64,000 bases of DNA, from NCBI GenBank assembly GCA_964474705.1, contig CAYYUI010000002.1:5-64004 (forward strand), written 5' to 3'. Origin of the DNA: an uncultured bacterium (lineage in GTDB: Bacteria; Muiribacteriota; Ozemobacteria; Ozemobacterales; Ozemobacteraceae). The notes below the pieces were generated by a model, which was given only the letters and a program-made list of their open reading frames with translations, did no database searches and was not told the DNA's origin. Shown here one piece after another: positions 9,703 through 61,500 of this stretch; position 1 is the stretch's first letter; every line of letters begins with the position of its first letter. The translations under genes were made by a program, and so were the position numbers.

Positions 9703-9704
9703 TG

Positions 9705-16059: not shown

Positions 16060-16307
16060 TGAGCCTCTGAAGCCAGCCATTTCGGCTCGATAGCAGCTGA
16101 AAATCGAATTGAATTTTGTCTGGCCTATAACACATCTACGTTCCAGACTGAAAAATGTAAGCGAAACTTATGAGGAAAATGCCGGGACGTTTCGTTTAGA
16201 ATCAACAGCATGATTCAAAATAATTCGATAAATCAGTCAAAACAAAGTTCATTCTAAATTAACTGCAGAATTGTTCTAAATCAATGTGCGAAGCAACAGA
16301 AGGCATC

Positions 16308-16358
16308 GAAATTAAATGATTAATCATGAATTTTAATTTGCATTGAATGAAATTAAAT
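16308..16358. repeat. 10-bp direct repeat GAAATTAAAT x2 flanking the palindrome ATTAATCATGAATTTTAAT, in an AT-rich promoter region
   Basis: Read directly: copies at 16308..16317 and 16349..16358. A further direct repeat TTCTAAAT x2 lies at 16252..16259 and 16273..16280. Confidence 0.5.
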
Positions 16359-16392
16359 TGTCATTTTGAAGAGTATGCCGGAGGAATTTGTT

Positions 16393-28063: not shown

Positions 28064-28306
28064 CAGTTCACCTCGCGAAAATTATTTCTCATCACTCAAA
28101 ATCTAATCCTTTCAGCCCAATGCGTCCACCATATTTTCCTGCGGCTGAACTTTCGAAAAGGCTGGCAATTTTCATCAAAATGCGTGATAATATTGTTGTG
28201 CAAAAATTCACAAACATGAAGCGGGAACTGTTGAAATGACATGCTCTGTCTGAATTGGTCGCGACTGGGCGACACCCGCAGTTGAAATGAAAGGTTGGAA
28301 AAGATA

Positions 28307-35261: not shown

Positions 35262-35277
35262 GGCTACAGCCCAAGTC

Positions 35278-36303: not shown

Positions 36304-36325
36304 CCTGACCGTCTGAAGTTGCAAA

Positions 36326-36366
36326 GAAGCCAGGAGAGCGTGCTCCTCTGGCTTCTTATTTTATTT
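36326..36366 (+). terminator. putative rho-independent terminator
   Basis: gaagccagg-agagcgtgc-tcctctggcttc stem followed by TTATTTTATTT. Confidence 0.45.
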
Positions 36367-36413
36367 CTGTGCTTTGCCTGCGGTGTGTGTTATTCTATAA
36401 ATGAAAGACACGA

Positions 36414-37094
36414 ATGATGAAGATGATCAGGCATAAAAGAAAAGATGGCATCACCTTTGTCGAGGTAATGCTTGCATTTCTAATTCTCGGGCTGCTTTTT
36501 CTGCCGGTTTTCTTTTTTCTGACCGGCGCGGTTCGTGATACCGAGAAATTTTACACCGAAACCGTCGCGATTTCGCGGGCAAAATTCATCATGGATTCAC
36601 TGATGTTCCAGTTTCCATGGTGGTCTATCAAGGCAGGCAATCCCTGCGAGTTCACTTCATACAACAGTGTTACCAAAAAATCTGTGAATGGGGTCAGTTC
36701 ACTGCTCGATAAAGCCATACCGGCAATGCTTGGTCAGGATGGCGAACCGGCTGAAATGCTGAAGATTTCCGCCAGCCCGCTCAAATACAGAGGTGAAGGT
36801 CTGTACCGATGTCGCAAAGGCTTTCTCTTCAGAGCCCGTGTTAAGGTTGTCGATCTCGATTACGATTCGACCTCGGCCAATCCGGTCATGTTCTCGATTC
36901 CGATCCCGGGTTCGCCGAACAAGCATGAGTTTCAGATCAACCAGCTTGTCTCGAAGCGTGATGATAAGTTCAATCTGATCAAAAAGATCATCGTTCAGGT
37001 CAAATGGTCAAATAACAAGGGCAAAGATCCAAAAGACGACAAGGGAGCGAAAAGCATTTTTCTTGTTGCCTTCAAATCTGATCTGGAAGGTTGA
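36414..37094 (+). CDS. pseudopilin-like protein (prepilin-type N-terminal motif)
   Basis: N-terminus KDGITFVEVMLAFLILGLLFLPVFFFL matches the class III signal / N-methylation motif (G|FTxxE + hydrophobic helix). Confidence 0.6.
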   Translation: MMKMIRHKRKDGITFVEVMLAFLILGLLFLPVFFFLTGAVRDTEKFYTETVAISRAKFIMDSLMFQFPWWSIKAGNPCEFTSYNSVTKKSVNGVSSLLDKAIPAMLGQDGEPAEMLKISASPLKYRGEGLYRCRKGFLFRARVKVVDLDYDSTSANPVMFSIPIPGSPNKHEFQINQLVSKRDDKFNLIKKIIVQVKWSNNKGKDPKDDKGAKSIFLVAFKSDLEG

Positions 37095-37097
37095 AGC

Positions 37098-37631
37098 ATG
37101 AAAAGACATGGCGTAGCAATAGTTGTGGTGCTGTTTTTCGCGTTTTCAATCGCGATAATTCTATTTTTCATGCTTCACTCGAATACCAATCTGGCCTATC
37201 AGAACAAGCAGACGCTCTATCAGATGCAGGCTTATTACCTGGCACATTCGGCCATGCAGCACGCTAAACTGCAGCTGCGCCTGCTTCCGAAAGAAACCTA
37301 CGAATTTTTCGCCAAGAATGGTACAGGCAATCCTTATGCCGACATCGACAGCTCCAACTATCCTCCGACCGCCATGGGGGTTTTCAGCAATAAAAATGCC
37401 GGTTATGACCTGTTCAAACCCGACAAATGCAGTGACGAAAAGTTTCCCTACGGCGGAAAATACCATGTTGAAACTCTTGAGCTACAGGGCTCGCACGACC
37501 GGATGAAAATGGTTCAGGATGGCTACAAAGTGGTGGTCAAGGCTGAAATTGACGGCGGTCGCGGCAAAACCTTCTCTGAAGAGCTGGCCGAAGAAATGAT
37601 CGTATCGCGATACACAGGGGGCCTCAAATGA
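37098..37631 (+). CDS. membrane-anchored pseudopilin-like protein (GspK/I-like N-terminus)
   Basis: N-terminus RHGVAIVVVLFFAFSIAIILFFM with no Glu at +5, as in GspK-type minor pseudopilins. Tightly linked to the flanking pseudopilin genes. Confidence 0.45.
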   Translation: MKRHGVAIVVVLFFAFSIAIILFFMLHSNTNLAYQNKQTLYQMQAYYLAHSAMQHAKLQLRLLPKETYEFFAKNGTGNPYADIDSSNYPPTAMGVFSNKNAGYDLFKPDKCSDEKFPYGGKYHVETLELQGSHDRMKMVQDGYKVVVKAEIDGGRGKTFSEELAEEMIVSRYTGGLK

Positions 37632-38671
37632 ATAGATGCTCCCGTAAAGGGGTAACCCTTGTCGAAGTCATGTTGACGGTGGCAATGCTCAGTCTGCTTT
37701 TTGGGGCGGCCAACGGCGTCATGACCTATTCGCGACGCGAGACCGAAAAGGGCTTCTGGATTCAGCAGGCGATCACGCAGCTGCGCAATACGACGCGCGC
37801 CATTTCCATGAAATTGAAGCAGACTTCTTACCCCTCGACCCTGATAAGAACGGCAACGGGTGATGAAAAGGTAATGTCCTTCAAGGAACGCCGCGAATAC
37901 GATGCCAGCGGCCGCCTGCGCAAGCTTGACATCAACCCGAGCGATGCCTATGAGCTGCGTTCGGTAATCAGCGGTTCAGGGGCGCTCATTCCTTCTTTTG
38001 AGGATCAGACGATCATGTATTTTCCGATCTGTGAGCCCGAAAAAGATTATGATACCGGTTACACCGCCGGCACGATAACCTGGGTTCATCTGGTGCTGCG
38101 CCCGGCCAAAGATTACCGGAGCAGCGGTCTTGGCAGCATTCACATGGTCGAGCATCAGGAAACCTACGATACCCGCGCTTACCCGCTCAAAAGAGCGTTT
38201 GGTCTCAACAAGACCTTCAGCAAAAGTGTTCCGATTCTGCGCACCAAAGAGCTGATAACCGATGTGCGCGAGATCAAGATCGATTTTTACGATATCGATG
38301 AATTGAGAGGCTCATACGTCGATAAAGATGGCAAACTGTCCGATGAAAAGATGGTGAAGCGCACCTTGATTTCACTGGGTATCAGCTGCTGTCACCCCAG
38401 AGACAAAAAAATCTGGATGAGCGACCAGTGTTCGGTAATCAACAATGTTGAACTGGTCGAGCTGCCAAGTCCGGCGACCATGGAACTGGTCAAGGTCATT
38501 TCCACCGGCCCATCCGGTTCGGCGCAGGTAAAGCTTGCAGGAGTCTCTCAGACGGTGAACGTCGGCAGCATGATGAATACCTACAAGGTAAAAGAGATTC
38601 TCAGTGACGCTCTGGTGCTTCTCGACCCGGCAACCGGCATCGAATCATATCTGACGAAGCTGGACGAATAA
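37628..38671 (+). CDS. pseudopilin-like protein (prepilin-type N-terminal motif)
   Basis: N-terminus RKGVTLVEVMLTVAMLSLLFGAANG is a canonical G|VTLVE prepilin motif. Overlaps the upstream gene by 4 nt. Confidence 0.6.
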   Translation: MNRCSRKGVTLVEVMLTVAMLSLLFGAANGVMTYSRRETEKGFWIQQAITQLRNTTRAISMKLKQTSYPSTLIRTATGDEKVMSFKERREYDASGRLRKLDINPSDAYELRSVISGSGALIPSFEDQTIMYFPICEPEKDYDTGYTAGTITWVHLVLRPAKDYRSSGLGSIHMVEHQETYDTRAYPLKRAFGLNKTFSKSVPILRTKELITDVREIKIDFYDIDELRGSYVDKDGKLSDEKMVKRTLISLGISCCHPRDKKIWMSDQCSVINNVELVELPSPATMELVKVISTGPSGSAQVKLAGVSQTVNVGSMMNTYKVKEILSDALVLLDPATGIESYLTKLDE

Positions 38672-38716
38672 TTTTTTTTTCCTTAATAAAATTCCCGGTC
38701 TTTCACGATAGTTAAG

Positions 38717-39277
38717 GTGAAATCACCAAATATGGGGAATATGATGAAGGAAAAGCGTTATTCAATCAGCAATGTTCAGCAGATGATCAATATCAGTCCG
38801 GCAGAACTGCAGAAAATGCTGCGCCGGAATGCGAATTTGCTTACGGTTTTCAAGGAAGACCTCGGCAATGGAAAACCCGAAATCTGCATTGATGAAGAAT
38901 CACTTCAGAAACTTATTTTCATCAGGCAACTCGGCAGCGGCAGCAAGCTTACCGGCAAAGAAGCGTGCGAAATGATCAGGGTGCCTGAGCTCAACTCTTT
39001 AAAAACCTGTGCCAGCAGCGAAAAAGAAGTTGTGGCGAGGCTGCAGAAAATTCTGGAAAGCGTTTCAGCTGAAGCCAGTGATCTGAAAAATCAGCTGGAT
39101 GGACTGTTGATCAAACACGAGCATCTGGTGAAGATGCTTAATGTGTCGCAGGCAAAGAACATTACTCTTGAAAAGGAAATCGGCATCCTGCGCAATCGTC
39201 AGGCCGCTTTGATGGGCCAGCTCAGGCAGAATGCCGAAAATTCCGATGAGGATCTGGAAATCCGTCTGGTTAACTGA
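38717..39277 (+). CDS. coiled-coil protein, hypothetical
   Basis: 186 aa. The C-terminal half is heptad-like (LQKILESVSAEASDLKNQLDGLLIKHEHLVKMLNVSQAKNITLEKEIGILRNRQAALMGQL). Confidence 0.4.
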   Translation: MKSPNMGNMMKEKRYSISNVQQMINISPAELQKMLRRNANLLTVFKEDLGNGKPEICIDEESLQKLIFIRQLGSGSKLTGKEACEMIRVPELNSLKTCASSEKEVVARLQKILESVSAEASDLKNQLDGLLIKHEHLVKMLNVSQAKNITLEKEIGILRNRQAALMGQLRQNAENSDEDLEIRLVN

Positions 39278-48984: not shown

Positions 48985-49545
48985 TCAGGACTGATCTGCA
49001 CTTAGCCTGAAAAAGGTGATGACGGTATCGCCGAAAGTGCGTTCATCGAGAAGTCGATAGGCAGGCAGGTTTTCAAGACCGAGCAGATCTTTTTTCTGGC
49101 GCTCGATTATGAACAGGGTTTCTGGTGAGAACATGTCGCAGGCAGGAATATACTTCAACAAGGGCTCGAGCAGCCCCTTGAGGTAAGGAGGGTCGATGAA
49201 AACGATGTCGAATCTCGGCAAATGCATGGTCTGGAGGAATTTGAGGCAATCCATGGTAAAAACTTCACCGCGATCGGCAAGGTTGGTTATTTCAAGGTTT
49301 TCACGAATGGTTCTGGTGCATTCCCGTGAGGCATCGACAAAAGCGGCGTAACTGCCCCCCCGGCTGAGAGCTTCGATACCCAGGTTTCCTGAACCGGCGA
49401 ATAGATCGAGAAAGCGCGCATCGTCTACCATCGCCGCAATGATGTTGAAAGTCGAACCCTTGACTTTGTCCATGGCCGGGCGGGTTTTGCCGCCTCCAGG
49501 CATTTTGAGATGTCTGCCCTTGGCAGAACCGGTAATTATGCGCAT
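48985..49545 (-). CDS. rsmD: 16S rRNA (guanine966-N2)-methyltransferase RsmD
   Basis: MRIITGSAKGRHLKMP...TRPAMDKVKGSTFNII...LDLFAGSGNLGIEALSRGG...IDPPY. The start at 49545 is 2 nt after the recG stop. The track's start at 49614 would overlap recG. Confidence 0.8.
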   Translation of the reverse strand: MRIITGSAKGRHLKMPGGGKTRPAMDKVKGSTFNIIAAMVDDARFLDLFAGSGNLGIEALSRGGSYAAFVDASRECTRTIRENLEITNLADRGEVFTMDCLKFLQTMHLPRFDIVFIDPPYLKGLLEPLLKYIPACDMFSPETLFIIERQKKDLLGLENLPAYRLLDERTFGDTVITFFRLSADQS

Positions 49546-49547
49546 GT

Positions 49548-51644
49548 TCAACCGCCTTCCATGAATGTCCGGTAGCTGTCTCCGAATGATCTGATCATCT
49601 GGCCATAAAACCATTCGCGAATTTCAGCCGGTTCTGAAGTCAGTATCGCGAAGGCGCGGGTGCGCGCGGTCTCGACAAGTTTCTGCGGTATGCGATGCGA
49701 AAAACATGGGTGGGAAAGGCCGCTCTGCCTGGTTCCTACCAGATCGCCCGGACCGCGCATTCTCAGGTCTTCGAGTGACAGTTCGAAGCCGTCATTTGTC
49801 GAAGCCAGAGCGGCCAGTCGCTCATTTTCGGCGGCAACATGCGAAACCAGCAGGCAGGTTGAAGCGTCAGAGCCTCGGCCAACGCGGCCGCGCAGCTGAT
49901 GTAATTGCGAAAGGCCAAAACAGTCGGCGTTCTCAATTATCATCAATGTGGCATTCGGATTGTCGACGCCGACTTCAACTACGGTTGTGGCAATGACTAT
50001 GTCGAGTTCGCCGGCTTTGAAACGCTGCATCGTCTGTTCTTTTTCTTCCCAGGTCTGAGCGCCGGTCAGACAGGCAAAAGTGGCATCGGGCAGGCAATCG
50101 CTGATGCGGTCGGCCGCTTCTTCAACCGACAGCCATTCTTTGTTTTCAGAAACTTCGATCAGCGGACAGACGATATAAATCTGCTTTTTTAGACGCAAAG
50201 CGCTTTCCATTGCCGGCAGCACCTCGGAAAAGCCTGAGCAGACCCTGGTGGTCACGGGCTGCCGCCCGGGAGGCAGCTCGTTGATGACACTGGTGTCCAT
50301 GTCGCCGAAAATTGTCAATGACAGGGTTCTCGGTATCGGAGTCGCAGACAGAAGCAGCTGGTGCGGATTCGTGCCTTTGCGGAACAGCTGCCGGCGATGG
50401 TTGACGCCGAACCTCTGTTGCTCGTCGATGATGCAGAAATCGAGGCGGTTGAACTGCGTCTGATCCTGAAAAAGTGCGTGGGTGCCGAAAACGAATCTGG
50501 CATTGCCGGCGGCGGTCGCGGCATTGGCATCTTTTCGTCCCGCCCCCTTCATGCTGCCGGTGACAATCGTTGCCAGATGAGCGAATTTGGGAAAAAACCG
50601 CGTGAAACTCTGCAGATGCTGCCGTGCCAGTATCTCAGTCGGAGCCATGAAGGCGCATTGTGAGCCGGGAGAAAGCTCCAGCGCAAAATGCAGCATTGCC
50701 AGAAAGGCAACCATGGTTTTGCCTGAGCCGACATCGCCCTGTAGAAGTCTGTTCATGGGAGGGCGGTCAGGGCCCGGCTGCAGATCGAAAATTATTTCGC
50801 CGAGTGCCTGCTTTTGCCCGCCGGTCAGGTCGAATGGCAGCGGGAAAGGTGAATCACATGGCCTGGCATTGCCGGCGTCAGGCAGGGTAAGAAAACCCGT
50901 GAGGTTTTCGCGACGTTTGAGAACGCCCATCTGAAACAGAACCTGATCGAAGAAGGCGAGGGTGTTGCGTGCTTTTTTTAATTCTTCGTCCGATTCAGGG
51001 CGGTGGATGTCTTCGATGGCTTCGGCGATGACGTTGAAAGATGAAGATCTTATTGCTTCAGGAAAAGACGAAGCCCAGTCAACCTGATCAAGAACGCTGT
51101 CAATAAGCTTGCGCAGCGAAAGCGGCGAAATTTTAGCTTCAGAGAGCCGGGCATTCGAAGGATATACCGGGGTCAGCTGCGCCCGGCAGGCAGTCAGCAC
51201 TTCATTATCGACCGGCTCGATTTCGGGGTTGGCAAGAACCGACTGGCCTTTTCCGGTGGTGAAGGTGCCGAAGAGCCAATAGTCACAACCGGTTTTCAAC
51301 TGCTTTACCAGGTAAACCCGATTGAACCATCTTGCCACTATTTTACCCGTTGCATCGGAAAACTCTGCATTGATTACAGTTAACCCGCGTCTGGCATGAT
51401 ATGATTTTACGGATTCAAGCCGGGCTTTGATTAAACTCTGGGCCTGAGGCTGGAGGTCGATAATTTTGACGGCCTGACGGCGGTCCTGGTATCTGACCGG
51501 GTAAATGCGCAGCAGATCGAATACGCTTGTGAAGCCCGCTTTTTCGAGGGTTTCGGATTTTTTCGGCCCGATGCCCTGAATGATGCCGACATGGTCGTCG
51601 AGACGGATCTTTACCGGAACCCGGACTTTTCTGGGGGCAGTCAT
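49548..51644 (-). CDS. recG: ATP-dependent DNA helicase RecG
   Basis: N-terminal wedge domain, helicase motif I GDVGSGKT, DEQQRFG (motif II) and the C-terminal QLRGRVGRG motif VI. Confidence 0.9.
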   Translation of the reverse strand: MTAPRKVRVPVKIRLDDHVGIIQGIGPKKSETLEKAGFTSVFDLLRIYPVRYQDRRQAVKIIDLQPQAQSLIKARLESVKSYHARRGLTVINAEFSDATGKIVARWFNRVYLVKQLKTGCDYWLFGTFTTGKGQSVLANPEIEPVDNEVLTACRAQLTPVYPSNARLSEAKISPLSLRKLIDSVLDQVDWASSFPEAIRSSSFNVIAEAIEDIHRPESDEELKKARNTLAFFDQVLFQMGVLKRRENLTGFLTLPDAGNARPCDSPFPLPFDLTGGQKQALGEIIFDLQPGPDRPPMNRLLQGDVGSGKTMVAFLAMLHFALELSPGSQCAFMAPTEILARQHLQSFTRFFPKFAHLATIVTGSMKGAGRKDANAATAAGNARFVFGTHALFQDQTQFNRLDFCIIDEQQRFGVNHRRQLFRKGTNPHQLLLSATPIPRTLSLTIFGDMDTSVINELPPGRQPVTTRVCSGFSEVLPAMESALRLKKQIYIVCPLIEVSENKEWLSVEEAADRISDCLPDATFACLTGAQTWEEKEQTMQRFKAGELDIVIATTVVEVGVDNPNATLMIIENADCFGLSQLHQLRGRVGRGSDASTCLLVSHVAAENERLAALASTNDGFELSLEDLRMRGPGDLVGTRQSGLSHPCFSHRIPQKLVETARTRAFAILTSEPAEIREWFYGQMIRSFGDSYRTFMEGG

Positions 51645-51657
51645 GTTAAGGAGCTTT

Positions 51658-51843
51658 TCAGTCCTTTGCGAAGTAAAGCTGTTTGAGGATCATGTAGTCC
51701 TGGCACATGTAGGCGAGATCCCAGCCGTTGCGGCCGGCTTCGTCAAGTAATGAACCGAGGCGTTCAAGAAATTCGGGGCCCTGCATTGGTGTGAGATCGA
51801 GGGTTTTATAATTCCAGCGCTGTGGTGATTTTTCAAGCATCAT
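51658..51843 (-). CDS. small DUF4177-like protein
   Basis: 61 aa with W(N)YKTL...LGSLLDEAGRNGWDL, resembling the DUF4177 WEYK...GWEL pattern. This is an inference from a remembered family profile. Confidence 0.4.
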   Translation of the reverse strand: MMLEKSPQRWNYKTLDLTPMQGPEFLERLGSLLDEAGRNGWDLAYMCQDYMILKQLYFAKD

Positions 51844-54220
51844 GATTTTTCTCCTGGCCTGGGTGCTGATCCTGCAGGATCGAGTTCAAATAGAGGTAGC
51901 CTTTGAGCATCTGTCTGAGCGAGGCATCCTGTTGCGGTGACTGAGCGCAGGCACGCAAAGTCAGATCGATGGCACTGAAGCCCTTCTGATGCTGACCGGT
52001 AAGATTGAAGCAGTAAGCAAGCAAAAGGTTGGATTCTACGTCTACCGGCGAAATGTCGACCGCTTTCAGCAGAACTTCAATTGCCTTGTCGTATTGCTTC
52101 AGCTGAATGTGCAGGGTGGCGAGTTTCTGATAGATTACCGGGTTGCGGGGCGAAAGCGCTGCCGCATGGGTGAGCAGTTTAACGCTCTCATTGAACTTGC
52201 CGGCGATCTGGTATATCTGACCGAGAATCAGGTAAGCGCCGAGAATTTTCGGGTAAATGCTCAGAGCTTTGACCAGATGCTTTACTGCGTCTTCATATTT
52301 TCGGCTGTAAAAATAGATGGTGCCGAGATTGAAATGGGCTTTGACCAGATTGGGGTTGATTTTGATCGCTTCGAGATAGAGCTTGGCCGCCTCATTGTTC
52401 TTTTTCTGCAGAAAGCAGAGGTTGGCAAACCCGAGCAGGGCCTTGAGATGCTGCGGGTCTTTCTGATAGATCATCTTGAAGATTTTTTCAGCGGCAGTGA
52501 AATTTTTAGCGGTAATAAAGCGGTTGGCGCTTTCAATTTCCTCATCATAGCTGTTGTCTGGCAGTATCTGGCTGGTGAGGACGACTGGTTTCGGCGCGAC
52601 TTCTTCATCTTCAGGCTGCTGTGTATGGGAATCCTTGCCTGGCGGGGCAGCGGGTGTGTCAGTAATCGGCGTTGCCGGAACGACGATCGAGGCCACCGGA
52701 GCAGCCACACCCCCGTCGGCGGCTATTTGTCGGTTGATGGCATCTGGGTTGCCGATCAATTCAGCGAGCAGGTTGTTGATCTGTTTGAGAAGCACTTCGT
52801 CATGGCTGATTTCTTTGCCGATTTCACCGAGAACGAAGGTTGCCGACTGGATGCGGCGCTTGTCTTCGCTTTTAAACAGTTCGCGGAGGTTGTCGAGAAC
52901 GCTGTATTCGCCCCACACCCAGAGGGTTCTGATCGCAGTACTTTTTACCCGGTTGTCTTCATGCTGCAGCAGATCCGTTAATTTGTTTATCAGCTCCGGG
53001 GCAGGCTTTCTCGATATCCTGACCATAGCATCGATGGTATTTGAAACAACTCTTGGATCTTCGCTGCCGAGGAATGGGCTGATGATGGCAATGACATCGG
53101 CTTTGGCGGTCTGCCCCAGGCAGGAAATGAGGGTTGCCTGCACGATAAAATTTTCTTCGCGCTGCAGTTTTTCTTTAAACATCGGCAGGGCGGCTTCAGG
53201 GGCGCAGCGTGCAATAGCCAGGGCCGCTTCAACCCTGACATCGAAATTCGGGTCGTCGAGCATCGGCTTCAAATGAGGCAGGGCGTCTTTCATTTCGATT
53301 TTACGCAGGGCATTGGTGGCATTGCGTCTGACATCGGGGTCTTCGTCTTTAAGGGCCCGGCCGAGCTCACGTATGAATCGCGAATCTTTAATTTCGCCGA
53401 TGGCGTAGGCGGCTGAGGCCCGATACCACTTGTCGGCGTGTTCCAGCATCTGGCGCAGGGTTTCTGAAACATCGAAGTCACCGTATTTCCAGATTGCCTT
53501 GGCTACATTCGCTCTGACGCGGTTACTGGGGTCTTCGAGATATGGCTGCAGAATGCCCACGATTGAGCCCGATTTGATGGTTTCGATGGCTTCGATGGCA
53601 TTGGCGCGAACACGCGGGTCTTCATCGCGCAGCGCCGCCTGGAAAACCGGCATAAGCTTGTCTGAGGCCATGTTGCCGAGAGCCATAATAATGGAAGCTC
53701 TGATCCTGGCACTTTTCTCCTGGGCAAGAAGCTTTTTCAACAGTGAGATAGCCCGCCAGTTTTTGATTTTGCCGACTGCGATGATGGCGCTGATAATGGC
53801 GTCTTCTTCGAAAAATATCTGGGAAGCATGTTCTTCGAGGGCCTGGGTGCTGGCGCCGACGTTTGCTTCCGAATAGGTGTTGAGAGCTTCCATCAGAATG
53901 TCGAAGGCCTCGGGGTTCTCGAGCATTCCAAGTGCCTGGGCGGCATTGAAGCGTACTTCCTGCTGGGAATCATTGAGAGCGTTTATAAGAAGTCCGATAG
54001 CCTTGTGGTTGTCTATGTTTCCCAGTGCCAGGGCCATGAAATCCTGAATATTGTCACTTTCGTAGGTCTGCAGCAGAAAATCGGTCGCCTTTTCACCTTT
54101 GAATTTTGAGAGGGCAATGGCGGCTTCGCGGCGTTGATCGTAGTCGCCGGCGACAAAATTATGAATAAGCCTGGCAATAAGTGGCTTGATGCTGGTAAGG
54201 ACTACATTGTTGGCGGTCAT
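51833..54220 (-). CDS. HEAT (PBS-lyase-type) repeat plus TPR repeat protein
   Basis: N-terminal 30-aa HEAT-like units (DEDPRVRANAIEAIETI; DPSNRVRANVAKAI; DEDPDVRRNATNAL; DPNFDVRVEAALAI). A Pro/Thr linker precedes C-terminal TPR units. Divergent from the pilT operon. Confidence 0.75.
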   Translation of the reverse strand: MTANNVVLTSIKPLIARLIHNFVAGDYDQRREAAIALSKFKGEKATDFLLQTYESDNIQDFMALALGNIDNHKAIGLLINALNDSQQEVRFNAAQALGMLENPEAFDILMEALNTYSEANVGASTQALEEHASQIFFEEDAIISAIIAVGKIKNWRAISLLKKLLAQEKSARIRASIIMALGNMASDKLMPVFQAALRDEDPRVRANAIEAIETIKSGSIVGILQPYLEDPSNRVRANVAKAIWKYGDFDVSETLRQMLEHADKWYRASAAYAIGEIKDSRFIRELGRALKDEDPDVRRNATNALRKIEMKDALPHLKPMLDDPNFDVRVEAALAIARCAPEAALPMFKEKLQREENFIVQATLISCLGQTAKADVIAIISPFLGSEDPRVVSNTIDAMVRISRKPAPELINKLTDLLQHEDNRVKSTAIRTLWVWGEYSVLDNLRELFKSEDKRRIQSATFVLGEIGKEISHDEVLLKQINNLLAELIGNPDAINRQIAADGGVAAPVASIVVPATPITDTPAAPPGKDSHTQQPEDEEVAPKPVVLTSQILPDNSYDEEIESANRFITAKNFTAAEKIFKMIYQKDPQHLKALLGFANLCFLQKKNNEAAKLYLEAIKINPNLVKAHFNLGTIYFYSRKYEDAVKHLVKALSIYPKILGAYLILGQIYQIAGKFNESVKLLTHAAALSPRNPVIYQKLATLHIQLKQYDKAIEVLLKAVDISPVDVESNLLLAYCFNLTGQHQKGFSAIDLTLRACAQSPQQDASLRQMLKGYLYLNSILQDQHPGQEKNHDA

Positions 54221-54328
54221 CGGTTTTCCCCGGCAAATAAGGCTTCAGCAGAAATTTTAGCAGAAACGCGAACAAATTAGAATACTGCAAACATTAAGAA
54301 AAGTTAAAGCAAATTTTATTTTGTTTGG

Positions 54329-54357
54329 TTGAACAGCGGGGTTTTTGTGCTTATAAT
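54329..54357 (+). promoter_or_regulatory. near-consensus sigma70 promoter TTGAAC-17-TATAAT, positioned for a leaderless pilT transcript
   Basis: TTGAAC at 54329..54334, a 17-nt spacer, then TATAAT at 54352..54357. The predicted TSS at ~54364/54365 coincides with the PilT ATG at 54365. The track's TTG 'start' at 54329 is the -35 box. Confidence 0.5.
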
Positions 54358-54364
54358 GACTGAC

Positions 54365-55438
54365 ATGGCAGACGCAAAAAGCTTGTTCAGATTACTAAAA
54401 CTGACTTTTGATGAGAACGCCTCCGACCTGCACCTGAAAATCGGCAAATCGGCCGCAATCAGGGTCGATGGGCACATTCGTCATCTTGAAGATTTTAAAT
54501 TCAACAAACATGATTTCGACCGGATTATCGAGGTGTTGTTGACCCCTGACCAGCAGGACCAGTTCCGCAAAAACCGCGAAATTGACTTTGCCTATTCCCT
54601 CGAAGGAGTATGCAGATTCAGGGTGAACCTCTACCAGGACCTGAACGGCGCCGGAGCCGTCTTCAGGGTGATTCCATACCGGGTTATGGAATTCGACGAA
54701 ATCGGCCTGCCCTTCGCCGCGCGTCGGCTGATCGAGCAACCCAATGGCCTGATTCTCATCACCGGGCCGACCGGGGCCGGCAAAACGTCGACGATGGCCA
54801 GTTATCTGAGCTATGTCAATCGCAATGCCCGTCGCCATGTGGTGACGCTCGAAGACCCGATCGAATATCAGTTCGAAGATGGCAACAGTTTCTTCAACCA
54901 GCGTCAGGTCGGCATCGACTGTTTGAGTTTTTATGACGGTCTGCTGACTGTTCTCCGCCAGGACCCCGACATAATCGTCGTCGGTGAAATGCGCGAACCT
55001 GAAACGATTTCTCTGACACTTAACGCCGCCGAAACCGGGAAACTGGTCATCGCGACTCTGCATACCAGCTCGGCGGTCAGTACCGCTGAGCGCATTGTCA
55101 ACGTTTTTCCCGAGGCCAGGCATCATCAGATTTTTCTGCAGCTGTCGATGGTGCTGCGCGGAGTCGTTTCACAGACGTTGCTGCCAAAAGTCGAAGGCGG
55201 CCGGGTCGCGGCTTTCGAAATACTGCTGAATACTTCGGCGGTTCGGTCTCTGATTGCCGACGGCAAGATTCACATGTTGCCGTCTTATCTTGAAACCGGA
55301 ACCGAATTCGGCATGACCACCATGGAAATGTCACTGGCACAGCTGGTTAAAGACCGGGTTGTCAGAAAAGAAGATGCATATTCGGTGGCGCCTAATCCGG
55401 CGGCACTGCGCAAGATCCTCAACGAACCGCCAGTCTGA
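54365..55438 (+). CDS. pilT: type IV pilus retraction ATPase PilT (canonical motifs)
   Basis: N-terminal ASDLHL...IRVDG domain. Walker A GPTGAGKTST, Asp box LEDPIEY, Walker B DPDIIVVGEMRE, His box IATLHTSSA. Confidence 0.85.
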   Translation: MADAKSLFRLLKLTFDENASDLHLKIGKSAAIRVDGHIRHLEDFKFNKHDFDRIIEVLLTPDQQDQFRKNREIDFAYSLEGVCRFRVNLYQDLNGAGAVFRVIPYRVMEFDEIGLPFAARRLIEQPNGLILITGPTGAGKTSTMASYLSYVNRNARRHVVTLEDPIEYQFEDGNSFFNQRQVGIDCLSFYDGLLTVLRQDPDIIVVGEMREPETISLTLNAAETGKLVIATLHTSSAVSTAERIVNVFPEARHHQIFLQLSMVLRGVVSQTLLPKVEGGRVAAFEILLNTSAVRSLIADGKIHMLPSYLETGTEFGMTTMEMSLAQLVKDRVVRKEDAYSVAPNPAALRKILNEPPV

Positions 55439-55451
55439 CGGGGTAACCAGC

Positions 55452-56489
55452 ATGCTGAGAATTCACCGCTTTTTTGAAATTGCCATCGAACGCCAGGCCT
55501 CAGATCTTCATCTCAAGGCCGGGGCGCCGCCGATCATCAGGGTCGGAGGGCGACTTATTCAACTTCCTGAAGAACCGCTGGCTTATCAGGAAATGCCGAA
55601 TCTCTTTTTGCCGTTGATGGATGTTAAAGCACAGAGCGATCTACGTGCCCAGCATGAAGCGAACTTCATGGCCAGATACAAGAACCGCTGGCGGGTGCGC
55701 GCCTGCATTTTCAGCCAGCGCGGCTGCCTTTCCGGGGCTTTCCGTTTCATTCCCCTCTCGACGCCATCGATCGATGGTCTTGGCCTGCCACCGCTGCTCA
55801 AGGAAATAGCAGCGCGGCCGCGCGGCCTGTTTCTGGTAACCGGGCCGGCCAACTCGGGCAAAACCCATACTCTTGCAGCAATCGTCAACGAGATCAACCG
55901 TATCTCAGCCCGACACGTCATCACTATCGAAGACCCTATCGAATTTGTCTACCGCGAACGCAAGTCGATATTTACCCAGCGCGAAATCGGGGTAACCGCC
56001 AACGATTACCACAGCGCCCTGATGAATGCGCTACGAGAAGACCCCGACGTAATTCTGGTCGGTGAAATGCGTGATGTCGATACCATTGAAATGGTACTGA
56101 CTGCTGCCGAAACCGGTCATCTGGTCTTGTCGACCCTGCATACGGTCGGGGCGGTGCAGACTATCGATCGCATTATCAACATGTTTCCGGGGCATCGCCA
56201 CGAAGAAATCCGTACCCAGGTTTCGATGTCGCTGATCGGAATAATTTCGCAGATACTTCTGCCCAGTCTGCACAAGAAAGAACGGGTCATGGCTTATGAG
56301 CTGATGATAATGAACTCGGCCATGCGGAACCTGATCCGTGAAAAGAAGACCAACCAGCTTAAGTCTGCTCTGATGCTGGCGCGCAAGGACGGCTGCAAAA
56401 CCCTCAAAGACTCGCTCAACGAAATGCTCAAAGATGAACGTGTCGATGGCCGGCTGGTTTCGACGGTCATGAAGGAGATAGTAGAATGA
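55452..56489 (+). CDS. PilT/PilU-family retraction ATPase (canonical motifs), second copy
   Basis: Walker A GPANSGKTHT, Asp box IEDPIEF, Walker B DPDVILVGEMRD, His box LSTLHTVGA. The ATG at 55452 lies 13 nt after the pilT stop. Confidence 0.85.
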   Translation: MLRIHRFFEIAIERQASDLHLKAGAPPIIRVGGRLIQLPEEPLAYQEMPNLFLPLMDVKAQSDLRAQHEANFMARYKNRWRVRACIFSQRGCLSGAFRFIPLSTPSIDGLGLPPLLKEIAARPRGLFLVTGPANSGKTHTLAAIVNEINRISARHVITIEDPIEFVYRERKSIFTQREIGVTANDYHSALMNALREDPDVILVGEMRDVDTIEMVLTAAETGHLVLSTLHTVGAVQTIDRIINMFPGHRHEEIRTQVSMSLIGIISQILLPSLHKKERVMAYELMIMNSAMRNLIREKKTNQLKSALMLARKDGCKTLKDSLNEMLKDERVDGRLVSTVMKEIVE

Positions 56490-58633
56490 GTCACCATGAA
56501 ATCGAATCCTTCAGATATGTCAAAGCGGCCCGCCGCCTGATGAAACCTTCGACTGAACGACTCGAAGCGATGATCTACGAAGATTTTTCCGACGAACTCA
56601 AGTTTGAAGCATTACTGAGCCTCGGCAGAATCGGCGACCAGGATTCTTTGCAGACCCTGACTCGCGCGTTCAACGATTACCCGGATTACATCGAACCGGT
56701 AACTGCGCTGGGCCATTATCGAAGCAGTACCCCGGTGGCGAAACTTCTCGAACGTCTCCAGGACCCAGATTCATTGTTTAAAGAAGAAATTGTCAGGGTG
56801 CTGGGTGAAATCGGTGACCCGATGGCCACCCGGTCGCTAATGGAACTCCTGCATGACGAGGACCGCATGGTTCGCTACTATTCGGCACGGGCTCTGCATA
56901 AAATGGGGGGGCGCGATGTCGTTCAGGCTCTCTGCAGCCTTTTGAACGACCCGGATGAATGGATCGTCATCAACGTTCTCGAGATTCTTTCCAGTATGCG
57001 TGATCCTGAGGCAATTCCAGCCCTGGTGGGGCAATTTGAAATAGCCCGTGACTCGCGATTGAAGGCAATCATCATCTCGTCACTGGCAACGTTCTCAGAA
57101 GGTCGTCTGCTCAAAACCTTCGAAAGCGGCCTTGGGTCATTTGACCCACGTATTCAGGCCAATTCCGTCGAAGCGGTGTCGATGCTGAAAATTCCGGCGC
57201 TTGAAATGAAGCGCAAATTGAAAAAATTCTATGGGCATCCGAACAATCGGGTCAGGGCCAATCTATGTATTGCTCTTGCCAATGCCGATGCCGAGGCGGT
57301 TACCGAAGAACTTGCCGCGATGATGCAGAGTCGTGACGCACCGACCAGACGTTCGGCTGCCTATGTGCTGGCCCGCATCAACAACCCGAAGCGTGAAGAA
57401 TACGTGCACAAACTTCTGGCTGATGAAAATTTCGGGGTTAGAAAAATGGCTCTCAAAGCAGCTCTTGAACTCGGCGATCTGGTAGGAGCCCGTGAGATTC
57501 AGCCGCTTCTGGCTGATGAAAACCAGTGGGTGCGCCGTGAAGCTGTAGAATGTGCGACCCGCATCGACGATTTTCCTGATGATGCGGTGCTTGGCCTGTT
57601 TAAAAAGGAAGAAACGCCGCCGGTTATCGAAGTGCTGTTGAAATATATAGTAAAACGCAGGCTGGTTGCGGCAATACCGCAGATTTTCGAAAGAATCCGC
57701 AAGGAACCGGAAGAGGAAATGCCCTGGCTGATTGCGGCTCTTGGTCATCTGGGCGCACGCGAAGAGCTTGGCAAAGTCAAAAAGTTTCTTGGCGCGGTGC
57801 GCTCGAATGTTTACTCTGAATATTATCAGGCTTTGATGCTTAATGGCGAGTTGACGGTATTTGAAGAAATCGCCGGCGGCCTCAAAGACAGGAAACGTGA
57901 AAACGAGCTGATGGTTTGGGTTAAGATTTCCGGAGTCATCGGCGGTTTCATGCAGAGAACCGATGAGTTTTCCCGGGCTCTTTTGACATCGCTCGCCGAT
58001 GAGGTGCAGCGAGACATGGATGGAGTAACCGTTTTTGCCGATGCCGAAAAGGAAACTCCAGACCATAAGGCTCAGATGCAGGAGGGCCTGGCTCTGTTCG
58101 ACAGCCGTGATTTCAGCCGGGCCCGTGAAATTTTCGAGAAGGTTTATAAGGCGAGGCCGAAAGATTTCGAAGCCGGGTTCCATCTGGCGAACTGCTTGTA
58201 CAATCTAGGTGAAATGCCCCGTTCCCAGGAAATCCTCGAGAAGATCATTCACCACAATCATGGGCAGGTTGAAGCGGGAATTCTACTTGGGCAGATCTAC
58301 TTCAGGCGCAAGGAATGGGCCAAACTTGCCGGTTGCTACGAAAAACTCAGGAAGCATGTTCAGGCCGACGACAAAAAGAACATCATCAAGGTCTATGGGG
58401 CTCTCGGGCTTGCCTATTTCAACCAGAAAAAATACGTCGAGGCGATCGAGGCTCTCAATCTCGGTTTGCAGGCAAATCCGCGTGATCTGTCGTCTTCTTA
58501 TCATCTCGCTCTCTGTTACTACTCGGTTGGCGAAACTGAAAAAGCCCGGCGTATTCTCGAAACGCTGCGCAAAACACTTCCCGCCGACAGCCAGGTGCTC
58601 AAGAACGTCATCGAGCTGCTGCAGCGCATTTAA
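56486..58633 (+). CDS. HEAT (PBS-lyase-type) repeat plus TPR repeat protein, paralogue of 51833..54220
   Basis: HEAT-like units (DPRIQANSVEAV; NNRVRANLCIALA; DAPTRRSAAYVLARI; DENQWVRREAVEC), then C-terminal TPR units. Its ATG overlaps the stop of the upstream ATPase (ATGA). Confidence 0.75.
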   Translation: MSHHEIESFRYVKAARRLMKPSTERLEAMIYEDFSDELKFEALLSLGRIGDQDSLQTLTRAFNDYPDYIEPVTALGHYRSSTPVAKLLERLQDPDSLFKEEIVRVLGEIGDPMATRSLMELLHDEDRMVRYYSARALHKMGGRDVVQALCSLLNDPDEWIVINVLEILSSMRDPEAIPALVGQFEIARDSRLKAIIISSLATFSEGRLLKTFESGLGSFDPRIQANSVEAVSMLKIPALEMKRKLKKFYGHPNNRVRANLCIALANADAEAVTEELAAMMQSRDAPTRRSAAYVLARINNPKREEYVHKLLADENFGVRKMALKAALELGDLVGAREIQPLLADENQWVRREAVECATRIDDFPDDAVLGLFKKEETPPVIEVLLKYIVKRRLVAAIPQIFERIRKEPEEEMPWLIAALGHLGAREELGKVKKFLGAVRSNVYSEYYQALMLNGELTVFEEIAGGLKDRKRENELMVWVKISGVIGGFMQRTDEFSRALLTSLADEVQRDMDGVTVFADAEKETPDHKAQMQEGLALFDSRDFSRAREIFEKVYKARPKDFEAGFHLANCLYNLGEMPRSQEILEKIIHHNHGQVEAGILLGQIYFRRKEWAKLAGCYEKLRKHVQADDKKNIIKVYGALGLAYFNQKKYVEAIEALNLGLQANPRDLSSSYHLALCYYSVGETEKARRILETLRKTLPADSQVLKNVIELLQRI

Positions 58634-58649: not shown

Positions 58650-59696
58650 ATGTCAGAATTGTTGAAAGTATGTCAGCTGGTCAAGGTTAAGGGGGCTTCA
58701 GATATCCACCTCTACCCGGATCAGCCGGTGTTTTACCGCCTGTACGGCCAGATCGAAAAGCTCGATACGGTGCAGCTCAGCGAAGACCAGATAAAGAAGA
58801 TCATTCTCGAAACCAGCACCCCGAAAGCCCGTGAAATTCTCGGTAAGCAACGCCAGGTAACTTATGCCGAAGAAGTGCCTACCGTTGGGCGCCTCAGGTT
58901 TTCAGTGTTTCTCGACAAAGGAAAGTTTGCCATCGCCATACGTTTTATCAGCGAGAAATTTTTCGAACTCGATGAGCTTGGCTTTGCCGAGGGAATCCGC
59001 AAGGTGATTTCGCAGCCATCTGGTCTGGTGCTGGTGGGCAGCCCTTCCGGGGAAGGAAAAACCACAACCATTGCTGCGATGCTCAATTTTATCAACCGGC
59101 ATTTCGAAAAAAGCATTTTTACCATCGAGAATCCCGTAGAATACGTGTTCTCAGATGATAAGGCCGCTTTCATCCAGCGTAGTATTCCGGTCGATATTTC
59201 AAATTTTTACAACGGTCTCTGCGAAGCCTATCGGGTTGATCCCGACGTCGTCGTATCTGATTCCATCAATTATTCCGATGCCATGGATCAGGCCCTGACC
59301 CTTTGCGAGTCCGGCTGCATGGTAATCGGTTCCACTGAAGGTGGGGACTGTCAGCAGATTCTCGAGCGTCTGATCAACTGCCGTGAGCCGGCAGGCCGTG
59401 AAGCTTTGCGGGCAAGAATCGCCGCGCAACTGAAGATGATTGTCAGTCAGCGCCTGATTCCGCGCGAAGATAAGACCGGCAGAGTTGCCATCTTCGATAT
59501 CATGATCAACACGCCGCAGATGAAAGCCCTGGTTCGCAACAATAACATGAGCATGTTTCGTGCTCTGCAGGGGCAGGGAGAAATCGCCGGCATGAAGACC
59601 TTCGATTCACAGCTGGCGCACCTGGTGAGAAAACGCATTATCAGTCAGAGAGTTGGGGCCGAATACGCGATCGATAAGTCGCGGATTAACAGTTAA
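58650..59696 (+). CDS. PilT-like ATPase paralogue with degenerate catalytic motifs (probable pseudo-ATPase)
   Basis: PilT N-domain is retained (ASDIHLYPDQPVFYRLYG). The P-loop is GSPSGEGKTTT, with the first Gly shifted. The Asp box is IENPVEY (D to N). Walker B is DPDVVVSDSINY, with the catalytic Glu and the Arg lost. The His box is GSTEGG, with His lost. AAAGAGG SD. Confidence 0.75.
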   Translation: MSELLKVCQLVKVKGASDIHLYPDQPVFYRLYGQIEKLDTVQLSEDQIKKIILETSTPKAREILGKQRQVTYAEEVPTVGRLRFSVFLDKGKFAIAIRFISEKFFELDELGFAEGIRKVISQPSGLVLVGSPSGEGKTTTIAAMLNFINRHFEKSIFTIENPVEYVFSDDKAAFIQRSIPVDISNFYNGLCEAYRVDPDVVVSDSINYSDAMDQALTLCESGCMVIGSTEGGDCQQILERLINCREPAGREALRARIAAQLKMIVSQRLIPREDKTGRVAIFDIMINTPQMKALVRNNNMSMFRALQGQGEIAGMKTFDSQLAHLVRKRIISQRVGAEYAIDKSRINS

Positions 59697-59709: not shown

Positions 59710-60750
59710 ATGGATATCCGCAAAATGATCGAAAAAGTAAAGACCGCAGGCGGCACCGAGCTGCATCTTAAGGTTGGTGCCAAACCCCTGATGCGCCGCA
59801 ACAAGTTTCTCCGCCACATGGAACTGCCGATTCTGCACGAAGACGATATGTCAACTCTGATCAAAGATCTCCTCAACGATGAAGACCGCCAGAAATTCGC
59901 CAGACTCAGTTCTTTCGAAGCGAACTTCTTTGGCAAACCGCCCTGTAACTTTCGTCTTACCCTTTTTCATTCGCAACAGAAGCCGGTCGCCCTGATCAAA
60001 ATCATCAACAACAAGATTCCCAGTCTCGAAGAAATCAGGTTTCCTGACGCTCTTACACCGATTATCGATGCCCGCAAGGGTATTTTCATAATCGCAGGGC
60101 CTGCCAGATCAGGCATTTCAACCTCGCTTGCCGCAATCGTGGAGCGCATTAACCAGATGCATCCACGGCATGTGCTGATCATCGAAGATCCGATCGAATT
60201 CAACTTTGAACCCAAGCGCTGCCGCATTTCTCAGAGGCAGTTCCGCAAGGATATCAACCAGATCGAGCAGGGCATCAACTTTGCCAAGCGTATGGATGTG
60301 GATGTCCTGGTGATTGGCGATCTCAAACGGGAAATTCCATTTCGGAACATTGTGGAATACGTTGCCGGCGGTCATTTTGTCATTCTGAGCATGCAGACGC
60401 TTGGAATTGTCAACACTCTCGAAAAATTCATCTTCTCATTTCCCGAGCCTGACCGTGAATATGTCTGTCAGGTGCTGGCTGAAAATCTGCAGGGAATCTG
60501 TTCGCAGATGCTGATTGCCGATATGGGCGGCAAGCGCGTGGTGCCTGTTCACGAGACTCTGGTAATGAACAACACTGCGATGAGCATTGTTCAGAAAGGC
60601 AAAATTTCACAGCTTGAACCCAATATCACCAGTGTCGGGCCGGGTAGCCAGCTGTTTGCGCAGGTCGTTCAGAAGCTCTATCTCAAAAACGATCTCGAGC
60701 GCACCGCCGGCGAAGATTTTCTCGATTTCTACCGTGGGGCCAGGGGGTAA
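59710..60750 (+). CDS. PilT-like ATPase paralogue with P-loop Lys lost (probable pseudo-ATPase)
   Basis: Walker A is AGPARSGISTS, with the Lys replaced by Ile. Walker B is DVDVLVIGDLKR, with Glu lost. The His box is LSMQTLG, with His replaced by Gln. The Asp box IEDPIEF is retained. AAAGGGGA SD before the ATG at 59710. Confidence 0.75.
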   Translation: MDIRKMIEKVKTAGGTELHLKVGAKPLMRRNKFLRHMELPILHEDDMSTLIKDLLNDEDRQKFARLSSFEANFFGKPPCNFRLTLFHSQQKPVALIKIINNKIPSLEEIRFPDALTPIIDARKGIFIIAGPARSGISTSLAAIVERINQMHPRHVLIIEDPIEFNFEPKRCRISQRQFRKDINQIEQGINFAKRMDVDVLVIGDLKREIPFRNIVEYVAGGHFVILSMQTLGIVNTLEKFIFSFPEPDREYVCQVLAENLQGICSQMLIADMGGKRVVPVHETLVMNNTAMSIVQKGKISQLEPNITSVGPGSQLFAQVVQKLYLKNDLERTAGEDFLDFYRGARG

Positions 60751-60752: not shown

Positions 60753-61133
60753 ATGAACAGCAGCCGTGGCAGAAGAGGTTTCACGCTTGTCGAAATGAGC
60801 GTCGTCGTGGCCATAATCGGGGTGCTTTATGCAACCGTGGTGCCTGTTTATGGCAAAACAATTATGCGTGCCCGTGAAACAGCGCTTAAAAACAGCCTGC
60901 ATACCTTCCGCATTACCCTCAACAATTATTACAAAGATCACGAAAAATGGCCTGAAAAACTCGATGTGCTGGTGACTGAAGGTTACATCCGGGCTGTTCC
61001 GGCAGACCCTTTTACGGATCGCAGTGATACCTGGTTGGTTGTGCCCTCTGAACCCGGTTTGTCAGATGTTTACGACATCAAATCGGGTGCTGAAGGTGCC
61101 AGTCTCGATGGTGTACCTTATGCAGATTTCTGA
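60753..61133 (+). CDS. GspG-like major pseudopilin (type II secretion / type IV pilin fold)
   Basis: N-terminus RRGFTLVEMSVVVAIIGVLYATVVPVY is a class III signal with Glu at +5. Length 126 aa. The C-terminal region resembles GspG (ITLNNYYKDHEKWPEKLDVLV...PADPFTD). AGGGGG SD. Confidence 0.75.
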   Translation: MNSSRGRRGFTLVEMSVVVAIIGVLYATVVPVYGKTIMRARETALKNSLHTFRITLNNYYKDHEKWPEKLDVLVTEGYIRAVPADPFTDRSDTWLVVPSEPGLSDVYDIKSGAEGASLDGVPYADF

Positions 61134-61500
61134 GCGTTCCGGAATTTCACTGCTGGTGCTGACGGTTGCTCTGGTTCTTATGGCTATTGGTCTTTCAGTC
61201 GTCATTCCGCGTGCTGATCTTGAGGTCAGACGCAGTCACGAAGAAGATCTGCGCTTCAAGCTCGGTGAATTCCGCCGGGCGGTAAGCAAATTTGCCAGAT
61301 GCAATGGCCGGCAGCCTGCCAATCTTGATGAACTGCTATGCGATGCTGGTGGGCGAAAGTTTCTGCGCCGGGCTTATGTCGATCCGATGACCGGTGCCTT
61401 CGACTGGCAGTGGGGTATTGCTTCCGATGGGGTGTTTGCGGTGCATTCTGCAAGCCAGCAGCCAGGAATCAACGGCGTGCCTTACAGCGCTTTTCGTTAA
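61120..61500 (+). CDS. minor pseudopilin-like protein
   Basis: N-terminus ERSGISLLVLTVALVLMAIGLSVV (G|ISLLV + hydrophobic helix). Its ATG at 61120 overlaps the GspG-like stop. The track's start at 61024 lies inside the upstream gene. Confidence 0.55.
   Translation: MQISERSGISLLVLTVALVLMAIGLSVVIPRADLEVRRSHEEDLRFKLGEFRRAVSKFARCNGRQPANLDELLCDAGGRKFLRRAYVDPMTGAFDWQWGIASDGVFAVHSASQQPGINGVPYSAFR

Follow-up and report, generated by a model that had tools for sequence, protein, structure and literature searches.

The window analyzed here is a stretch of 64,000 nucleotides of contig CAYYUI010000002.1 (GenBank assembly GCA_964474705.1) from an uncultured bacterium of the family Ozemobacteraceae. In it two genes for PilT-family ATPases, T1 and T2, are directly followed by a gene for a large protein, B, which is built of PBS-lyase-type HEAT repeats and tetratricopeptide repeats (TPRs). 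This PilT-PilT-HEAT/TPR triad recurs throughout the candidate phylum Riflebacteria (Rifleibacteriota), which points to a so far undescribed, apparently phylum-specific partner protein of PilT motors. We propose, with a probability of roughly 55%, that B is a dedicated scaffold or adaptor which is predicted to bind the T1/T2 motor pair. A second HEAT-TPR protein, A, is encoded divergently from T1, and two further PilT-like genes (T3 and T4) as well as pilin-like genes follow B. An earlier sequence-only reading of this DNA had described A and B as paralogues that bracket the PilT pair. Both open reading frames (ORFs) exist with the positions and lengths it had given, 795 amino acids (aa) on the minus strand and 715 aa on the plus strand.

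We defined a triad as two PilT-family genes followed by a HEAT-TPR gene of 700–1100 aa with a start codon overlapping the stop of the second ATPase gene, this second ATPase carrying an AIRNLIRE-like motif and a C-terminal tail of the form EIxE. T1-T2-B of the window conforms to this definition; A does not, as it is transcribed divergently and shows no coupling to an ATPase gene. T2 was found directly upstream of B in every locus for which upstream DNA was available. At the T2/B junction the two genes overlap by 4 nt (ATGA) in 40 of 44 loci and by 1 nt in two others, the remaining two loci showing a gap. A Shine-Dalgarno sequence (AAGGAG) is located about 10 nt upstream of the start of B, within the last codons of T2. 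From these junctions we conclude that translation of B is coupled to that of T2 across the phylum. With one exception (KGIVE), all species have a T2 protein with the C-terminal sequence (K/R)EI(V/I)E, in which the codons for the Ile and Val residues vary synonymously. The other three ATPases, T1, T3 and T4, have variable C-terminal tails.

The triad also occurs in a second version, in which the place of B is taken by a related HEAT-TPR protein, D. All five D-type loci examined carry two T2SSE/PilT-like genes (T1' and T2') followed by the HEAT-TPR gene, which overlaps the second ATPase gene by 4 nt. T1' is closest to T1 (46% identity), T2' is closest to T2 (50–54% identity) and D is closest to B. 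This part-by-part pairing implies that the whole triad was duplicated at least once. The five T2' proteins show a tail of the form (Q/E)EI(V/I/E)E, a GAATGA junction and an AIRNLIRE-like motif, and genes for PilB-like proteins (MshEN plus T2SSE) and pilins lie close to the D triads. B and D have a nearly invariant HEAT core in common, comprising B residues of about 120–295 and 344–353 with the motifs DPDEW, D.R(I/L).AN, NNRxRAN, RRSAAY and D.N.W.RK, while the TPR parts are poorly conserved between the two.

Two further observations concern the D triads themselves. They are located at 7885–12337 in locus L059, at 7876–12487 in L061 and in L062–L064, and behind some of them lie additional genes of about 500 aa that encode HEAT repeats only. 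In four of the five T2' proteins the sequence (S/T)LPT is found where the PilT His box reads TLHT, which replaces the histidine by proline; none was picked up in the fifth. These T2' proteins with proline may be catalytically altered.

All proteins of the window were compared by tblastn with the loci obtained from a scan of GTDB species genomes. The scan returned 48 loci, 47 of them with a B orthologue; the remaining one (L053, Bryobacteraceae) gave a weak partial match only. The order rsmD-recG-A, followed in the opposite direction by T1-T2-B-T3-T4-pilin, is kept in most species with recN usually nearby, and the layout of the window is the commonest in the phylum. Candidatus Ozemobacter sibiricus has the full gene order, its A and B proteins being 55% and 54% identical to those of the window. 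T3 follows B in 40 of the 42 loci with enough downstream DNA, T4 follows T3 in 39 of these 40, and the first pilin-like gene stands behind T4 in most loci. A second pilin match with about 27% identity was detected behind the first in nine other loci, which indicates that the second copy is present in some species only.

The arrangement is looser in deep-branching lineages. In two such genomes T1-T2-B stands alone with A, T3 and T4 not nearby. In one of them A-recG-rsmD is found elsewhere on the same contig; in the other T3-T4-pilin is located on a different contig (split module L058), where the pilin-like gene again follows T4. In GCA_015233565.1 T1-T2-B, T1'-T2'-D and A-recG-rsmD are found at three separate places. 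Since these units are separate in the deep lineages, the bracketing is best described as three modules placed side by side, [A-recG-rsmD], [T1-T2-B] and [T3-T4-pilin]. In the window A is indeed divergent from T1 at a distance of about 140 bp, and B does lie between the intact pair T1/T2 and the degenerate pair T3/T4, as had been noticed from the sequence. The flanking arrangement thus stands but not an equivalent partnership of both proteins with the ATPases, because B is coupled to T2 phylum-wide and A stays with recG-rsmD, which it adjoins in nearly all loci.

Orthologues of B were found only in Candidatus Riflebacteria/Rifleibacteriota (Rifleibacterium, Ozemobacteraceae) at 38–100% identity, followed by a sharp drop in score. 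The same is true for A, whose orthologues are 46–95% identical before scores drop sharply to those of generic HEAT proteins. An exhaustive search of 1.84 billion representative proteins with the profile of the B family revealed further relatives which align collinearly over the full length or the whole HEAT region, and those with a name belong to Riflebacteria. The GTDB loci with a named record are likewise from Riflebacteria, except for a few bins under other labels. Among these, L011, L015, L039 and L023 carry the full Riflebacteria cluster at 67–74% identity in metagenome-assembled genomes labeled Erysipelotrichia, Candidatus Avigastranaerophilus or Candidatus Methylomirabilis; these contigs are probably mis-binned or mislabeled.

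An all-against-all score matrix separated at least four HEAT-TPR subfamilies within the phylum, which fall into two clades, {A, C} and {B, D}. The nearest paralogue of A is C with 320–430 BLAST bits and the nearest paralogue of B is D with 195–250 bits, whereas A and B reach only about 100–150 bits against each other and D and A about 60–130 bits. To judge from these scores, the HEAT-TPR family has expanded in the candidate phylum along two old clades. Members of the C subfamily are 32–33% identical to A and adjoin pairs of HAMP-SpoIIE phosphatase genes, not PilT genes.

We also determined the domain composition and predicted fold of A and B. The combination of N-terminal PBS-type HEAT units with C-terminal TPRs, which the sequence-only reading had recognized, was confirmed by Pfam for both proteins. 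A matches HEAT_2 (PF13646) with 224.6 bits (1.2e-67) and HEAT_PBS (PF03130) with 83.4 bits (2.6e-24), and B matches the same models with 164.1 bits (9.4e-49) and 67.1 bits (4.7e-19), all far above the gathering cut-offs of 27.7 and 20.9 bits, respectively. TPR matches above the gathering score are found at residues 560–760 of A (TPR_2 78.9 bits, TPR_1 75.8 bits; about 1e-22) and at residues 530–700 of B (TPR_19 75.7 bits, TPR_2 53.5 bits). Both proteins are accordingly members of the HEAT (PBS-type) and TPR families, with the HEAT repeats in the N-terminal 500 aa or so and the TPRs in the C-terminal 170–230 residues. The family to which A and B belong comprises proteins of about 700–830 aa, each with some 15 HEAT repeats of the PBS type that are joined by a flexible linker to 5–7 TPRs. 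In A, residues 361–465 resemble residues 196–300, suggesting an internal duplicate. AlphaFold2 models, calculated for the monomers with family alignments, show all-helical solenoids with pLDDT values of 81 for A and 90 for B and a disordered linker at residues 506–544 and 514–525, respectively. The models consist entirely of helix-turn-helix pairs and have alphaRep and HEAT proteins as their best Foldseek matches, as is typical of alpha-alpha solenoids. The N-termini (MTANNVVLTSIKPLIARLIHNF... and MSHHEIESFRYVKAARRL...) contain neither a hydrophobic signal segment nor a cysteine within the first 30 residues, and in both models the first helix belongs to the solenoid. Since there is no signal peptide or lipobox at either N-terminus, A and B should be cytoplasmic.

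Of the ATPases, T1 and T2 score 405.3 and 384.5 bits with TIGR01420, the model of the PilT/PilU family, clearly above its cut-off of 319.1 bits. Their best matches in the Protein Data Bank (PDB) are solved PilT chains (1e-90 and 1e-84), and Walker A, Asp box, Walker B and His box are intact across 41–45 orthologues. T2 carries the motif AMRNLIRE; T1 has a degenerate AVRSLIAD at the position of AIRNLIRE. T3 and T4 remain below the cut-off with 275.8 and 217.9 bits, T3 matching PilT chains of the PDB at 5e-52. T3 keeps Walker A and has lost the Walker B glutamate and the His box in all orthologues, where (S/T)DS(I/L)NY and TEGG/TDGG replace the catalytic motifs. T4 has isoleucine in place of the Walker A lysine (GxxxSGIS) in 39 of 39 orthologues, GDLKR at Walker B and no His box. 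The motif table of the orthologues thus confirms the description of T3/T4 as a degenerate pair that has lost catalytic residues. Throughout the phylum T3 and T4 are conserved (43–95% identity), and in the split genomes a small GspG-like pilin gene accompanies them. A word-seeded search, which is blind to distant relatives, detected the T4 family in Riflebacteria only. We regard T3 and T4 as old, conserved PilT paralogues that are catalytically dead by their motifs.

A promoter scan detected a sigma-70-like site in front of T1, with TTGAAC at 54329, a spacer of 17 nt and TATAAT ending at 54357; 10 of the 12 hexamer positions match. A TATAAT or TATACT hexamer is present 7–9 nt before the T1 ATG, directly upstream of ATGGCAGAC, in about 20 species of Riflebacteria. 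Because the TATAAT ends only 7 nt before the conserved T1 start (ATG at 54365), the transcript from this putative promoter is probably leaderless, and the mechanical assignment of ORF starts to 54329 and 54356 is probably incorrect for T1.

How B might act on the PilT pair can be outlined as follows. B would be produced at a fixed ratio to the T2-type PilT and, like D, would bind hexamers of the T1/T2 retraction ATPases. The predicted binding surface is the HEAT core that is nearly invariant between B and D (repeats 4–9). Bound in this way, B could position, couple or gate PilT motors at the base of a type IV pilus and possibly recruit inactive rings of T3/T4, while other partners would attach to the variable TPR end. 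A pilus context is suggested by the PilT-family membership of T1 and T2, by the pilin genes closing the operon and by the PilB-like and pilin genes beside the D triads. We also considered whether the TPR domain of B could clamp the acidic T2 tail as Hop and CHIP do with EEVD. This idea was downgraded because the TPRs vary between B and D despite the conserved tail, and because the tail overlaps the B start and the Shine-Dalgarno sequence.

Several results weigh against this proposal. The conservation of the T2 tail could in part reflect nucleotide constraints, as its codons contain the Shine-Dalgarno sequence and overlap the start of B, and the poor conservation of the TPR part between B and D speaks against TPRs holding this tail. 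A search of the PDB with both models (Foldseek) and with sequence profiles returned only generic or designed HEAT, ARM and TPR solenoids, so that the fold tells nothing specific about the client. No gene for the pilus assembly proteins PilB, PilC or PilM-Q was found in the window, and the link to pili therefore derives from family membership.

The sequence-only reading regarded A and B as paralogues. Since repeat proteins can align through their consensus alone, we made a profile dot-plot in addition to pairwise alignments. BLASTP of A against B gave a single collinear alignment of 741 columns with 22% identity (E 6e-29). The repeat motifs which had been matched by eye are aligned to one another in it: A201 DPRVRANAIEAI is paired with B220 DPRIQANSVEAV, and NRVRANVAKAI at A232 with NRVRANLCIAL at B253. 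Comparison of the two families by hhalign, using ortholog alignments of 23 A and 21 B sequences, yielded a probability of 100 and an E-value of 1.4e-47 over 656 columns (A 11–757 with B 18–693). In the dot-plot A151–255 pairs uniquely with B170–276 (z up to 9.6, next-best about 5), and the TPRs at both ends of the TPR array are placed on the collinear diagonal as well. Most of the remaining HEAT units show only a generic fit, to several units about equally well, and the HEAT core common to A and B (DPRxxAN, NNRVRAN, SAAY) is part of the core of B and D. If A and B were unrelated repeat proteins with a merely generic HEAT/TPR likeness, one would expect the low identity, the many long generic HEAT proteins that score higher than A against the B profile, and the ambiguous fit of most HEAT units outside A151–255 to several units of B. 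We consider this very improbable, as one alignment runs collinearly from the HEAT array across the linker position into the TPRs, a register-specific block stands out, the terminal TPRs share the same diagonal and, among the best full-length matches with a source name, the common architecture is seen only in Riflebacteria. By these alignments A and B are homologous over their full length and represent old, distant paralogues, no recent pair. The proposed paralogy therefore holds as homology but not as a simple duplicated pair, since the two belong to anciently split subfamilies whose nearest paralogues are C for A and D for B. Some database labels would place the two proteins in named families instead: JGI lists 'Tfp pilus assembly protein PilF', one NCBI record 'phycocyanin operon protein Z', and besides Pfam HEAT_PBS there are weak NCBIfam matches to NblB, CpcE and PilW. 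That A and B are ordinary PilF/PilW/Tgl pilotins or phycobilin lyase/NblB proteins is hardly credible. With the lyase/NblB models (NF058502, NF045915) A and B reach 110.9 and 69.1 bits for NblB against a cut-off of 300 and 94.6 and 47.3 bits for CpcE against 330. With the pilotin models the values are 55.8 and 43.5 bits for PilW (TIGR02521, cut-off 154) and 27 bits for Tgl (NF033762, cut-off 225). Each match covers one repeat region only, and the signal peptide and lipobox required of an outer-membrane pilotin lipoprotein are absent. Neither protein belongs to these families, and both automatic annotations, 'PilF' and 'PBS lyase', are wrong.

Two other explanations concern the function of the cluster. 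A may act on the same motors as B, because it shares part of the HEAT core and, usually, the divergent promoter region. The linkage of A is far weaker than that of B, however, and another client is possible. It is quite conceivable that only B is a partner of PilT and that A works with something else, such as recG-rsmD or, like C, a signaling phosphatase, its head-to-head position being inherited without a function in common with T1. In one deep-branching genome A-recG-rsmD persists on the same contig as T1-T2-B at a distance of at least 75 kb, in L014 this block has been inverted as a whole, and A is missing upstream of T1 in five of 35 informative loci (L017, L029, L030, L042 and L045); three rumen-clade loci lack A upstream of T1. 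The closest relatives of A adjoin SpoIIE phosphatases, not PilT, and A shows no translational coupling to an ATPase. All of this speaks against a role of A at the motors. On the other hand, A lies divergently and within about 2 kb of T1 in 29 of the 35 informative species loci, including L025 and L026 where recG-rsmD is not beside A, and it retains the register-specific HEAT block in common with B. A promoter-like site at 51836–51808 may moreover serve recG on its own, which leaves an operon of A and recG not established. The triads might also constitute a separate machine for DNA uptake or processing, secretion or gliding instead of pilus retraction, which we regard as unlikely. Genomes with several PilT-like pairs, far above the needs of one pilus, would fit such a machine, as would the proline in the His box of T2', the dead but conserved T3 and T4, the window without pilus assembly genes, and the recG and recN flanks kept in many species, the neighbors recG, recN, HU and RecD2 hinting at DNA uptake or processing. 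Yet T1 and T2 score well above the PilT/PilU cut-off, T2 keeps the PilT-specific AIRNLIRE motif, prepilin genes close the operon, PilB-like ATPase and pilin genes accompany the D triads, and the rec flanks are gone in the split arrangements and D triads. For the same reason a role in DNA repair, suggested by the recG/recN flanks and a marginal PINA match (E 9e-4), was rejected as the principal explanation, triads occurring without rec genes nearby. More speculatively, and rather doubtful in our view, the PilT-a/PilT-b/HEAT-TPR triads together with T3/T4 could form a new class of PilT-derived motor assembly, in which the HEAT-TPR solenoid would hold together hexamers, stacked or mixed, with active as well as inactive subunits and which would have diversified within the phylum into several specialized machines that are more than plain retraction motors.

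The genes of the cluster and their positions in the window are listed in the table. From T1 to the second pilin-like gene the plus-strand genes are separated by 16 nt at most, apart from the overlaps. The two pilin-like genes overlap each other, close the operon and encode a common C-terminal GVPY(A/S)xF; an NCBIfam scan gave no match among family models for the second. recN (Pfam) is convergent on the distal end of the T1 operon.

Table. Features of the cluster in the window and the basis of their assignment
Feature	Position	Strand	Size	Description and basis
A	51833..54220	minus	795 aa	HEAT(PBS-type)-linker-TPR solenoid, A/C subfamily; ORF and translation, Pfam, AlphaFold2
A-T1 intergenic region	54221..54364		about 140 bp	divergent; holds sigma-70-like promoter
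T1	54365..55438	plus		PilT/PilU-family ATPase, catalytic motifs intact; start codon inferred from conservation
T2	55452..56489	plus		canonical-looking PilT; stop codon overlaps B start
B	56486..58633	plus	715 aa	HEAT(PBS-type)-linker-TPR solenoid, B/D subfamily; third gene of the triad T1-T2-B
T3	58650..59696	plus		predicted PilT-like pseudo-ATPase; below TIGR01420 cut-off, motif table
T4	59710..60750	plus		predicted PilT-like pseudo-ATPase; below TIGR01420 cut-off, motif table
pilin-like 1	60753..61133	plus		GspG-like prepilin with GFTLVE N-terminal methylation motif; Pfam N_methyl, TIGR02532, sub-cut-off GspG match
pilin-like 2	61120..61500	plus		degenerate pseudopilin-like paralogue, hydrophobic N-terminal helix; from translation
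recG	49548-51644	minus		downstream of A; Pfam RecG_wedge/DEAD/Helicase_C
rsmD-like methyltransferase	48985-49614	minus		downstream of A with recG; Pfam Cons_hypoth95

Scans of the window with Rfam and for tRNAs found none. A PADLOC scan for defence systems gave only generic HEAT-ARM/TPR and weak P-loop matches, and none for T3, T4 and the pilin. The window also carries tandem genes for HAMP-SpoIIE (PP2C-type) phosphatases of about 965 aa each on the minus strand (20382–26163), with no adjoining C-type gene, unlike the same kind of pair in other Riflebacteria. An ORF of 838 aa near this pair (16366–18882) was considered as a diverged C-type HEAT-TPR protein and turned out to be unrelated (hhalign probability 0.2, no Pfam match). 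Several ORFs of 186–838 aa without a Pfam match at E 1e-5 lie at 33912–39274 and 14509–18882. Elsewhere genes for a gingipain-like C25 peptidase (10798–12714), HydF (28295–29509) and DnaE (30657–33698) were identified.

PilT-family hexamers are among the strongest molecular motors known, and how PilT is recruited, switched and coordinated with PilU-like partners is an open question. The regulators of PilT that we are aware of are small, namely PilZ-type proteins, c-di-GMP and polar landmark proteins. Here the gene for a large solenoid protein is firmly linked to a PilT pair in an entire phylum and was apparently duplicated along with it, and two PilT paralogues have long been kept despite the loss of catalytic residues. 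If B and D bind the ATPases, this would be a new way of scaffolding such motors and a bacterial counterpart to the HEAT scaffolds of eukaryotic PP2A, condensin and karyopherins. The phylum is uncultured, and its members have been described as anaerobic organotrophs.

Among known systems, the A subunit of PP2A is a single HEAT solenoid on which an enzyme is held together with its regulators. It appears among the Foldseek matches of A at a TM score of about 0.3, which is generic only and indicates no evolutionary or client relationship to A and B. PBS-lyase-type HEAT proteins (CpcE/NblB, and the natural family behind alphaRep) have the same type of HEAT unit, and designed alphaRep proteins are the best PDB matches of A and B in structure as well as in sequence; in contrast to CpcE/NblB, A and B are far longer, fused to TPRs and below the lyase cut-offs. 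With the PilF/PilW/Tgl pilotins A and B have TPRs in common and differ from them by the HEAT array of 500 aa and the missing lipobox. HEAT-TPR proteins are not canonical components of type IV pili, as had been remarked from the sequence: no family model, structure or paper ties them to pili, and the literature searched contained neither a HEAT-repeat partner of PilT or PilU, of which we know none, nor a description of pili in Riflebacteria. SgmX of Myxococcus and the TPR protein Bd2492 of Bdellovibrio, which we take to be large cytoplasmic regulators proposed to position or activate pilus motors, offer an analogy by description and not by sequence; they presumably consist of TPRs only, and their genes are not known to lie in a PilT operon. 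Of all known systems the PilT/PilU tandem of type IVa pili, as in Pseudomonas and Vibrio, comes closest. As in these pairs, T1 and T2 are adjacent and above the family cut-off, and one member (T2) keeps AIRNLIRE while the other (T1) does not. Unlike PilT and PilU, the two ATPases T1 and T2 both match solved PilT chains with higher scores than PilU, and unlike the tandem the arrangement described here adds a coupled 715-aa HEAT-TPR gene and two predicted dead PilT paralogues to the pair and appears to have been duplicated as a triad within genomes.

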